Shown one piece after another: positions 59,160 through 64,000 of a DNA stretch of 64,000 bases. Numbering within the stretch: position 1 is the first letter of the stretch; each line of letters starts with the position of its first letter. The DNA is from Escherichia coli. GTDB lineage: Bacteria > Pseudomonadota > Gammaproteobacteria > Enterobacterales > Enterobacteriaceae. A program made the translations under genes and the position numbers. The notes under the pieces are model-generated. The model had not been told where the DNA came from. It saw only the letters and a list, made by a program, of their open reading frames with translations, and made no database searches. Location: NCBI RefSeq assembly GCF_003019035.1, contig NZ_CP027447.1. One strand, 5' to 3'.

Positions 59160-61175
59160 TCAGTGAAAAAATTGCCATTGCGTTATGCGATCGCGCAAAC
59201 GCTCAGTGCGAACATCATCAAGTGCGTATAGCGCCTGCGCGGCCTCTTCCCGCTGACGGACCAGTAACAGCTTACGGCCTGAAAGTTTAAGTGTGGTACA
59301 TAACTGCGCGTCACTGGCGTTTTTCTGTAAACGCCCACGCAGCGCCGGTAATGCCATTTCGCTGGTTTGTAACAGACGCATTAAGCAACCTAACGACGTT
59401 AATAGCGGACGATGAGCGAAAGCAAAACCGGCCAGTTCAAGCCAGTCGTCGTCAGAAAGGACGGCATCATTTAGTGGATCAACAGGGAGCGTTTCGCCAT
59501 TCCACTTTGCGAGAGCTTGCGCATCGCGACGTAAACGGTAATGCTCACGTTCAGCCAGCTGTTTACCCGCATCACTCATCGGTAACAGCGCCATCGCCGT
59601 ATAGCAACCGCTGCTGGCTTCACGATGATTACCCATTCGCACCAGCACAAAACCGCAGCGTTGCCAGAAACGCCATAATTCCCCGGTGTAACCAAAACTC
59701 ACCGAAAGATAGTCGAGGTCATGCGTATATTGCAAAGCACCAGCAATCAGTTGCTGACCTGTGCCTTCCCGCTGACGAGCCGGATGAACTGCTATCCGGC
59801 TAACCCGCCGTCCACGCAATGTCGCCGCCAGTGGATTGCTGCCGTGCGCCGCCAGCGACTGGGCCACCAGATTACCCCGCGGGCGACGAAAACCTGCCCA
59901 TACCGCCTGACTGAGTTCTTGAGATAATCCGCCCTCATCCACCAGCCACAGCGCCCCGGCAATCGCGTTTTCGCCAGCCGCCTGTAAAAAATGTTGCCCT
60001 GGTGCATCCATCATGCGGCGTAAATCCAGCGGCGAAGTCCGGTAGTGCGCACCAGACAATAATTGATAAACCTTTAACGGCGTTTGTGGCTCGCTTCGCC
60101 ATAACGTCTGTTCAAATGCGGAAATGACGATATTGCCTTGTGGTGTGTGGGTGAAGTTTTCATCGTCAAAAACCAGTGCCTCACTAACCATTTTTTCCAG
60201 CGGGCATCCCTGTGCCCAGCGGATCGGCTGTTGCAGTTCAAAACGGTGTAAATGCGGAAAGCGAGCGCAAAATTTCAGCAAAAAACCACGTCCCGTGCCT
60301 TCGTAGCCCTGCACCGTAGTGGTTAACAACGTTCGAGGAAAACGCGATACCAGTTGATGCAACAACGGCGCAGGTATGGCTGCGGCTTCATCGACCACCA
60401 GCCAGTCGGCTTGCTCATCGCTGGCTAACAAGGCATCCGGCGCAATAAAGCGAAACTTCTCGCCCGCAAATTGTGCCAGTACATACGTTGCCGCTTTTGC
60501 GGGCGCGGTGACAATCGTACTACCCGCAATACGAGAAATGAGTTGCCCTGCCAGCGCCGATTTACCGCGCCCACGCGCAGCCGTTACCACCGCCACGCCC
60601 AATGGCATGGTCAGTAGCTGCTGTAAGAGTTGCTGTTGTTCTGGCTGTGGTGCGCCGGTCGCGGGGTGCCAGTCAGTACGGGGAGTAAAATGCGCCAACG
60701 TGAACGGCTGGTTCTGCCGCCAGAGGATAGCGTCGTTATTCGCCGTAAGTACGCGTTTGAGATGCTGGACAAAATGCGGCGTCGCAATAGGGTCAGGGCA
60801 ATCACTCCAGCGCAGCGAGTCGGCATCAGGTTGGTTTTCCCACTCTTCCCATACAGGGAGTAACAACACCAGCCAGCTTCCCGCTTTCAACGTTCCGCTA
60901 AGTGCCGCAAAGGCAGCGGCATCAAAGCCGTGGCGGGCGTCGAATACCGCATGCCGGAACTCGCGCCCAAGTAAAGTTTGTAGCGCCGAGGGAGAACAGT
61001 GGTTTTCAGCATCTGGCTGCGGCGAAATCCACAGCCAGTCGCCAGGTAAGGCATCACGCAACTTAAGCGCATGATCAAAACACCAACCCTCTTCCCCGCT
61101 CAACACCAGCAAGCGGCGGATCCCTTCACGTTTCATTTGCGCTGTTAATGTGTGAAGCGCAGTCAGTTCAGCCAT
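59160..61175 (-). CDS. tmcA: tRNA(Met) cytidine acetyltransferase TmcA
   Basis: 671-aa ORF MAELTALHTLTAQMKREGIRRLLVLSGEEGWCFDH...; Walker A GRGKSA and C-terminal GNAT domain. Confidence 0.9.
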   Translation of the reverse strand: MAELTALHTLTAQMKREGIRRLLVLSGEEGWCFDHALKLRDALPGDWLWISPQPDAENHCSPSALQTLLGREFRHAVFDARHGFDAAAFAALSGTLKAGSWLVLLLPVWEEWENQPDADSLRWSDCPDPIATPHFVQHLKRVLTANNDAILWRQNQPFTLAHFTPRTDWHPATGAPQPEQQQLLQQLLTMPLGVAVVTAARGRGKSALAGQLISRIAGSTIVTAPAKAATYVLAQFAGEKFRFIAPDALLASDEQADWLVVDEAAAIPAPLLHQLVSRFPRTLLTTTVQGYEGTGRGFLLKFCARFPHLHRFELQQPIRWAQGCPLEKMVSEALVFDDENFTHTPQGNIVISAFEQTLWRSEPQTPLKVYQLLSGAHYRTSPLDLRRMMDAPGQHFLQAAGENAIAGALWLVDEGGLSQELSQAVWAGFRRPRGNLVAQSLAAHGSNPLAATLRGRRVSRIAVHPARQREGTGQQLIAGALQYTHDLDYLSVSFGYTGELWRFWQRCGFVLVRMGNHREASSGCYTAMALLPMSDAGKQLAEREHYRLRRDAQALAKWNGETLPVDPLNDAVLSDDDWLELAGFAFAHRPLLTSLGCLMRLLQTSEMALPALRGRLQKNASDAQLCTTLKLSGRKLLLVRQREEAAQALYALDDVRTERLRDRITQWQFFH

Positions 61176-61189
61176 CCCTGCCCCGGAAG

Positions 61190-62053
61190 TTAAATGCTTT
61201 TACCAAAAGTATTGCATTGTGCCGGATCGCCGCTGTCGAAACCACGTTTAAACCAGCTGTAGCGTTGCTGAGAAGTGCCATGAGTGAAACTGTCTGGTAC
61301 TACTCGCCCCTGACTTTGCTGTTGTAAACGGTCATCGCCGATGGCCTGCGCCGCGTTCAGCGCCTCTTCCAGATCGCCGGTTTCCAGAACACCTTGCTGC
61401 TGCATACTATGCCCCCAGACACCGGCAAAACAGTCGGCCTGGAGTTCCATACGCACAGATAAGCGGTTCACTTCCGCCTGCGTCGCGTTTTCTTGCAGTT
61501 GACGAACTTTCGGCTCGATGCCTAACAGTTTCTGCACATGATGACCGACTTCATGGGCGATAACGTACCCCTGGGCAAAATCGCCATCCGCGCCAAGTTT
61601 GTCTTTCATGTCATCATAGAAGGAGAGATCGATATAAACCGTGCCATCCGCCGGGCAATAGAACGGTCCCATAATGGATTGGCCCGCCCCGCAGCCGGTG
61701 CGCGTCATTCCACGGTACATGACCAGCTTCGGTTGCTGATAGGTTTTACCCATCTTCTCGAATTGCTGTCCCCAGGTGTCTTCCGTGGTTGCCAGAATCA
61801 CCGAAGTGAATTTTGCGGCTTCGTCTTCATTAGGACTAATTGACCGTGTTGATTGCTGTTGGGAAACCGGCTGTCCGGTCATCAACCCGGTTAAATCAAC
61901 GCCATAGTAGCCTGCAACCAGCACGACTATCAGTAAAATCAGCCCGCCTTTACCGCTTGGCAGGCGAAAACCTGGACCGCCCATTGACGGACCACCAGAG
62001 CTGTTGCGCCTGTCTTCAACATTGTCACTTTCACGTCGCCCTTGCCAACGCAT
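61190..62053 (-). CDS. ypfJ: Putative zinc metalloprotease-like protein YpfJ
   Basis: 287-aa [24 protein letters not shown]...; HEVGHH zinc-binding motif. Confidence 0.85.
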
Positions 62054-62220: not shown

Positions 62221-62934
62221 TCAGTCCAGCTGTACACCCAGGCGGCGGGCGACGGCTTCATAGGCCTCGATCAGGCCACCGAGGCTCTGGCGGAAACGGT
62301 CTTTGTCCATTTTCTCCAGCGTTTCTTTGTCCCACAAGCGGCTGCCGTCCGGGGAGAACTCATCGCCCAGTACCACTTCACCTTTGTACAGACCAAACTC
62401 CAGCTTGAAGTCGACCAGAATGAGACCAGCATCATCGAACAGTTTTTTCAGCACGTCGTTCGCTTTGTAGGTCAGCTCTTTCATGCGTGCCAGGTTCTCT
62501 TTGCTTACCCAGCCAAAGGTTTCGCAGTAAGATTCGTTGACCATCGGATCGTGCATGGCGTCGTTTTTCAGGAACAGATCGAACAGCGGCGGGTTCAGCT
62601 CAATACCTTCTTCGATTCCAAGACGTTTCACCAGAGAGCCAGCAGCACGGTTACGCACGACACACTCAACCGGCACCATATCCAGCTTTTTCACCAGACA
62701 TTCGGTATCGGAGAGCAGACGCTCCATTTGAGTCGGGATACCCGCTTCAGCCAGTTTGCTCATAATGAAGTAGTTGAACTTGTTGTTCACCATACCTTTG
62801 CGATCAAACTGCTCAATGCGCGCGCCATCCCCTGCTGACGTATCATTGCGGAATTCGAGCACCAACAGGTCCGGGTTTTCCGTGCTGTATACGGTTTTCG
62901 CTTTACCACGATACAACTCAGCTTGCTTTTGCAT
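62221..62934 (-). CDS. purC: SAICAR synthetase
   Basis: ORF track 62221..62943(-) trimmed to [37 protein letters not shown]; 237 aa. Confidence 0.95.
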
Positions 62935-63000
62935 CTTTATCACTCCTGGGTGTGAATTAACGTTTTAAAATCTATTGCTGTCTGGTGTGCCGGATGTTTT

Positions 63001-63034
63001 GTCGGATGCGGCAAGAACGCCTTATCCGACCTAC
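63001..63034. repeat. REP-like palindromic element upstream of purC
   Basis: gtcggatgcggcaagaacgccttatccgacctac (REP-type). Confidence 0.55.
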
Positions 63035-63087
63035 GTCCGACAAACAAATTTCGTGCGAATTACCGCTAAAATCGCATTTTTCTGCCG

Positions 63088-63103
63088 ACGCACACGTTTG
63101 CGT
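63088..63103. promoter_or_regulatory. Candidate PurR operator (PUR box) in the purC upstream region
   Basis: acgcacacgtttgcgt: 16-bp near-palindrome matching the PUR-box consensus (ACGCAAACGTTTTCGT), 154 bp upstream of the purC start. Confidence 0.5.
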
Positions 63104-63112
63104 ATCATATCA

Positions 63113-63140
63113 GAAAAAAGGGCCGGATGACTCCAGCCCT
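63113..63140 (-). terminator. Intrinsic terminator after bamC
   Basis: On the minus strand: gggcugg-agucau-ccggccc hairpin (one G-U pair) followed by uuuuuu, 7 bp after the bamC stop. Confidence 0.55.
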
Positions 63141-63146
63141 GTATTT

Positions 63147-64000
63147 TTACTTGCTAAACGCAGCCTGGAAGACAGCTACCAGCGCGTCATTCTGACTCTG
63201 AGTCAGAGTATGACCTTTCGGATCGATGAACTGTAGGCTGCTGCGGTTATCTAAATCGCCAACCTGCAGTTTATAGTCACCGGATGCCAGGCCTGGATCG
63301 CTCGCGCCCAGTTCCTGCCAGTCGCTGTCAGACAGCGGCTTGTAAGTTACGGCCATGTTACCCTGCGAACGGGTGCTGTCGGTCACTTTCATGCCCACTT
63401 TTTCCAGCGCCGCTGGCAGACGTTGCCAAACCACATTGAACGGCCCGCGTACGACCAGCATCGGTAAACCGGTGTCATCAGCTGCACTTTGTACGTCCAT
63501 AGTGGTGGAGGCACGATTTTGCGCAGCGTTCGCGGCGTCAGTGGCAGATTTATCCAGACCGGCGGAAATAACGTTCATCATCTCCGTGCTGTAACGCTGC
63601 ATGGAAGCCGCGTCTGCAACCGGTTTGCCCGCCTGTTCCAGGTTCAGCAGTTTAACCGTAACCGCCTGCTGATAACCCTGCGGCTTAACAGAGATTTGAT
63701 AACGACCACGATACTGCTCGTCTTCGTCCAGACGGTTCCATTGTACCCAATCGGTGGTCAGTGTCTGACCAGCATCATCACGTTGGGTGATGGTGTAGTT
63801 TTTCGCCTGCAGCACGCTAACCACCTGCGGCCACAGAGTATTGCCACGACCATTTTCCACCAGCAATGAAGCGGTATCGCCCGTGAACTGGGTACGCGCG
63901 CCAGAAACCAGTGCCAGCGGCTGGGCTGGTGGACGAATGTCCAGCGCCTTACCGACAGCACCACTACCGTTGGTCACCGGGATTGCATAATCACCGGAGG
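63147..64000 (-). CDS. bamC: Outer membrane protein assembly lipoprotein BamC (NlpB), partial (5' end beyond window end)
   Basis: Reverse frame open to the window edge (...[33 protein letters not shown]... to C-terminal ...VFQAAFSK); the Met shown by the ORF track at 63977 is an internal Val codon. Confidence 0.9.

Follow-up and report, generated by a model that had tools for sequence, protein, structure and literature searches.

The 16-bp sequence at positions 63088-63103 of the Escherichia coli DNA analysed here (one stretch of 64,000 nucleotides, hereafter the window) is almost certainly the PurR operator, or PUR box, of the purC promoter; we put the probability of this identification at about 0.97. 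The evidence comes from the sequence itself, from a position weight matrix (PWM), from the PurR consensus, from identity with a site located by ChIP-chip in K-12 and from conservation across genera, and no counter-evidence was found. PurR control of purC has been on record since 1990, when He et al. reportedly observed in vitro binding of PurR to the purC operator and regulation of a purC-lacZ fusion that depended on purR, and Meng et al. are said to have found purC expression to be under purR control. The operator is thus already known and the sequence adds no new biology to it.

Read directly, the + strand of the box is acgcacacgtttgcgt, and the minus strand, which is that of purC, is ACGCAAACGTGTGCGT. 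Fourteen of the 16 positions are self-complementary (7 of 8 pairs), the exception being a mismatch between positions 6 and 11. The box agrees with 13 of the 14 specified bases of the consensus ACGNAAACGTTTGCNT, so that its description in the original prediction as a 16-bp near-palindrome matching the PUR-box consensus holds, with one mismatch. A CpG step occupies the exact centre (positions 8-9, 63095-63096). The central CpG is the site where, in the co-crystal structure, the PurR hinge helix and Leu54 contact the minor groove.

The box lies in the spacer between bamC and purC, both of which are encoded on the minus strand. The regulated gene, purC (SAICAR synthetase), occupies 62221-62934, and the 3' part of bamC occupies 63147-64000, with its stop codon at 63147-63149 and the gene continuing past the end of the window. 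Both assignments are based on the open reading frames and on RefSeq annotation: many complete E. coli genomes contain DNA identical to 62850-63250, and in these RefSeq places purC and bamC on the two flanks of the spacer. Also on the minus strand are ypfJ (61190-62053) and tmcA (59160-61175). The K-12 annotation has purC begin at the ATG at 62934, with AGGAG at the proper distance before it; the mechanically derived purC reading frame reaches three codons further 5', to a GTG at 62943 (MIKMQKQ...). The edge of the box at 63088 is 154 bp from the ATG, and both this distance and the placement in the bamC-purC spacer are as originally predicted.

The PWM was built from the 27 motifs tabulated by Cho et al. 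2011 (Table 1, PMC3159470) with the purC site excluded, and the test is therefore not circular. In this leave-one-out form the box scores 18.56 bits on one strand and 17.04 bits on the other, and the 27 training sites score both below and above these values (11.3-25.0 bits). It is the top-scoring site of the 64-kb window, the runner-up reaching 11.67 bits, about 7 bits lower. The score corresponds to a p value of 3e-7 per position, or 0.04 sites expected in the window on both strands. A search with the consensus allowing at most one mismatch gives the same picture, since the box is the only match in the 64 kb and 0.04 matches are expected from shuffled sequences.

The same site has been located experimentally in K-12. 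Table 1 of Cho et al. 2011 (PMC3159470) lists the PurR motif ACGCACACGTTTGCGT at 2,595,794-2,595,809 (U00096.2) under the purC ChIP-chip peak, which belongs to the strongest peak class and has a log2 value of 2.08 with adenine and 1.52 without. In U00096.2, purC is located at 2,594,927-2,595,640, and the K-12 motif begins 154 bp upstream of its ATG, the same offset as in the window. When the window is aligned with MG1655, the DNA from the bamC stop codon through the box is identical apart from one base in the terminator loop, and the 16-mer, the -10 element and the terminator stem are all the same. The differences from K-12 are neutral polymorphisms outside the box only: the one terminator-loop base, three in the 12-nt stretch that follows the box and a few in the element resembling a repetitive extragenic palindrome (REP) described below. 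Judged by sequence, the box in the window is the same element as the K-12 purC operator, carried by another E. coli strain. The IPOD-HR study (PMC8282354), in which purC is a showcase promoter, finds that in rich medium the PurR site upstream of purC is occupied; minimal medium abolishes the signal, as does deletion of purR, and the deletion strain also has more RNA polymerase at purC. The original prediction had proposed PurR repression of purC and had named a PurR matrix scan and a comparison with the mapped K-12 operator as checks. All of this is upheld: the box ranks first in the window with a score inside the range of published sites, the K-12 operator is the same 16-mer at the same offset (PMC3159470), and occupancy at the identical K-12 site depends on purR and on purines (PMC3159470, PMC8282354).

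Immediately upstream of the box, with respect to purC transcription, is the predicted intrinsic terminator of bamC (63114-63140, minus strand), which was recovered by a terminator scan and by RNA folding. It consists of a stem-loop at 63119-63140, with nine pairs (six of them GC) and a 4-nt loop, followed by a T-run at 63114-63119. The stem begins 6 nt past the bamC stop codon and the fold has a free energy of -17 kcal/mol (z = -3.65 against shuffles). With these properties the hairpin and T-run 3' of bamC qualify as a predicted rho-independent terminator.

The position of the box relative to the promoter can be read from a K-12 transcription start site (TSS). Table S1 of Kim et al. 2012 (PMC3415461) lists a purC TSS at 2,595,803 on the minus strand with a 163-nt 5' UTR, and the sequence given upstream of it ends ...CTGATATGATACGCAAA / ...TTTTTTCTGATATGATACGCAAA. 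This start, which is supported by 24 reads in one genome-wide K-12 data set and is transferred to the window by sequence identity, corresponds to 63097 (minus strand), the seventh base of the box. As a result, the operator extends from -6 to +10. The terminator tail and the box are separated by 9 nt, which form an extended -10 element, TGaTATGAT (63104-63112, minus strand), identified by sequence reading and positioned by the K-12 TSS: the TATGAT hexamer (63104-63109) lies at -12 to -7 and the TG (63111-63112) at -15/-14. The terminator T-run then falls at -17 to -22, and the stem-loop at -22 to -43, covering the -35 region. A consensus promoter scan of 62800-63300 found no -35/-10 pair, so the promoter assignment is based on the TSS and on the reading of the extended -10. 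Accordingly, the purC promoter is a predicted promoter of the extended -10 type, with the terminator hairpin in the place of the -35. This geometry, with the operator on +1, an extended -10 and a terminator as the -35 region, is a mildly useful addition to the known operator.

The same start also changes how the distance to the gene should be seen. The untranslated leader of purC extends 163 nt, from 63097 to 62935 on the minus strand, and it is this leader that accounts for the 154 bp between the box and the ATG. The 154 bp of the original prediction are correct as a measurement, but the picture of a remote upstream element that they convey is not, because the K-12 TSS lies inside the box and the 154 bp are leader. 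The terminator range given there, 63113-63140, is essentially right, and the compact arrangement of a terminator followed by an operator is also right, with the -10 squeezed in between.

This arrangement suggests how PurR may repress purC. When purines are plentiful, a PurR dimer carrying hypoxanthine or guanine would bind the 16-bp box. With the box at -6 to +10 and a promoter of the extended -10 type that lacks a usable -35, bound PurR would cover the stretch that RNA polymerase has to grip and open, and would thereby block initiation at purC. We infer that repression of purC proceeds by such steric occlusion, and the higher RNA polymerase occupancy in the purR deletion (PMC8282354) fits a block at initiation. 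When purines are scarce, PurR would leave the box and purC would be transcribed with its 163-nt leader. The bamC terminator, lying upstream and overlapping the -35 region, would make purC largely independent of dapA-bamC transcription, and bound PurR would probably also stand in the path of polymerases that read through the terminator.

Several well-known operators are built in a similar way. Those of purF, purMN, purL, purHD, purT and purEK, which share the consensus ACGNAAACGTTTGCNT, likewise overlap purine-gene promoters and consist of an imperfect palindrome of 16 bp with CpG at its centre; the purC box differs in having C/G at positions 6/11, where most PurR sites have A/T. In the same protein family, the lac O1 operator of LacI, centred at +11, is also a palindrome bound by a LacI-family dimer and overlapping the transcription start region, as at purC. 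The ligand logic is the opposite, in that PurR needs a corepressor at purC while LacI is released from lac O1 by an inducer, and, unlike lac O1, the purC operator has no known or visible auxiliary operators or looping. PurR sites are usually located between -35 and -10 (Cho et al. 2011, PMC3159470), whereas the purC box, at -6 to +10, is downstream of the -10. The intragenic operators of purB and purR share the repressor and the motif with purC; they lie within open reading frames and block elongation (PMC3159470), whereas the purC site is on +1 and should block initiation.

The last comparison raises the alternative that PurR acts at purC mainly as a roadblock, as at purB and purR, or that it acts on another promoter, for example one with a -10 downstream of the box. 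We consider this improbable. It would agree with the 14 loci of other genera where a good -10 (CATAAT, TATAAT or similar) follows the box at a distance of 2-5 nt, so that the box falls in the promoter spacer, and with the usual location of PurR sites (PMC3159470), from which the purC box departs if the start of Kim et al. is the main one; in addition, since the box directly follows the bamC terminator, PurR bound there would also meet polymerases that read through. In E. coli, however, no acceptable -10 is present in the sequence that follows the box (CGGCAGAAAAAT; the score is 0 for both L071 and L007), and the start mapped in K-12 falls within the box, 7 nt past TATGAT. Polymerase occupancy at the purC promoter also rises in the purR deletion (PMC8282354), which fits blocked binding.

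Two further explanations concern the nature of the site itself, and both are very remote. As operators of the LacI/GalR family share a central CG and similar half-sites, the site could serve mainly another repressor of the family, such as RbsR or CytR, with PurR binding only incidentally. The occupancy, however, is lost in a purR deletion and tracks the purine supply (PMC8282354, PMC3159470), the score lies among those of genuine PurR sites, and purC is a core gene of purine biosynthesis; the published loss of occupancy (PMC8282354) largely rules out another regulator of the family. The box could also be a chance palindrome, or an RNA hairpin of the bamC terminator or purC leader with no role in protein binding, given that it adjoins the terminator and that read-through RNA could fold a short 5-bp hairpin there. 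Against this, only the 0.04 matches mentioned above are expected in the window by chance, and transcription starts inside the box, so that the purC mRNA has only its 3' half. The box is moreover kept, with compensating half-site variants, in genera with differing flanks, and it is occupied in vivo (PMC3159470, PMC8282354). The conservation and the ChIP data together rule out a chance palindrome or an RNA hairpin.

Within E. coli the operator is nearly invariant. A 30-nt core comprising the end of the T-run, the extended -10 and the box is present at 99% identity or more in 5410 of 5426 complete genomes, while the 401 bp around it are only 95-99% identical in 5066 E. coli records. For the comparison across species we used one genome per species (120 loci), anchored on a conserved N-terminal peptide of PurC and thus chosen independently of the operator. 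Among these Gammaproteobacteria other than E. coli, 117 loci have enough upstream DNA, and in 63 of them the 400 nt preceding purC include a PUR box that scores 14 bits or more, against an expectation of 0.005 per locus. The identical 16-mer is found in 33 of the 117. Other genera have different but likewise good PUR boxes, for example AGGTAAACGATTGCGT in Pantoea and Rosenbergiella, ACGGTATCGTTTGCGT in Serratia and ACGCAAACGTTTGGCT in Edwardsiella.

Two of the 33 identical 16-mers are flipped, reading ACGCACACGTTTGCGT on the purC strand (Enterobacter sp. BIGb0383, L014, and Enterobacter sp. ENT03, L098). This swap of the sole asymmetric pair is consistent with the orientation of the box being functionally irrelevant.

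A PUR box reaching 14 bits was not found in the 400 nt upstream of purC in Yersinia (L017, L086, L087), Pectobacterium (L111, L028, L056), Rahnella (L012, L075, L106), Proteus (L041, L108), Photorhabdus, Xenorhabdus, Gilliamella or Mangrovibacter (L029). The bamC-purC synteny is retained in several genera without the box, and purC in such genera may be regulated differently or from a more distant site. In Cedecea neteri (L084) and at two other loci (L011, L109), a weaker PUR-like palindrome, TTGCGCAAGCGATCGCTA (6-8 bits), replaces the usual box; it lies beside the ribosome binding site, 13-17 nt upstream of the purC ATG. At a similar place near the ATG, three more loci (L110, L112, L015) have CCGCAAAGCGGTTA.

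The surroundings of the box are partly constant and partly variable. In about 40 of the 63 box-bearing loci, the terminator T-run ends 9-11 nt before the box. In 15 loci (Escherichia, Citrobacter, e.g. L004, and Kluyvera), the predicted -10 directly adjoins the box on its upstream side, which puts the box at -6 to +10. In the 14 loci already mentioned (Enterobacter, e.g. E. cloacae, L009; Edwardsiella, L050; Hafnia, L058), it follows the box at a distance of 2-5 nt and leaves the box in the spacer, and in the Pantoea group (e.g. L019) it precedes the box by 11 nt, with the box at approximately +5 to +20. One tentative reading of these predictions, to which we give somewhat less than even odds, is that in Enterobacterales the promoter has turned over around an operator that stays fixed beside the bamC terminator, so that the mechanism of repression would differ between genera. 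This cross-species view of a fixed operator and a variable predicted promoter placement adds, in a small way, to what is known of the operator.

The purC leader of Escherichia contains an insertion of about 103 bp (62950-63052, minus strand) that becomes apparent when the sequence is aligned with Citrobacter and Pseudocitrobacter. An imperfect direct repeat flanks the insertion, with copies (62950-62962 and 63053-63065) that are 103 nt apart, and as a result its exact edges are ambiguous. REPs are imperfect palindromes, about 35 nt long and of the GCCGGATG...CATCCGGC type, that occur in transcribed intergenic regions. The insertion hosts a REP-like hairpin with inverted repeat arms at 63001-63012 and 63019-63030. 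In a comparison of the leader with Rfam, no riboswitch or small RNA family was matched, and the only match in the spacer is to the REP-derived naRNA4 at 62987-63031 (E = 6e-4), with a score of 31.9 bits that is below the gathering score of 59.5. That an Escherichia-specific insertion with a REP-like element lengthens the purC leader is also a mildly useful observation. The box starts 168-169 nt before the purC ATG in E. coli and E. albertii, compared with 65-69 nt in most Enterobacteriaceae that have the identical 16-mer (65-67 nt in Citrobacter and Pseudocitrobacter), and the longer distance in Escherichia is due to the insertion, which is absent from Citrobacter and Pseudocitrobacter.
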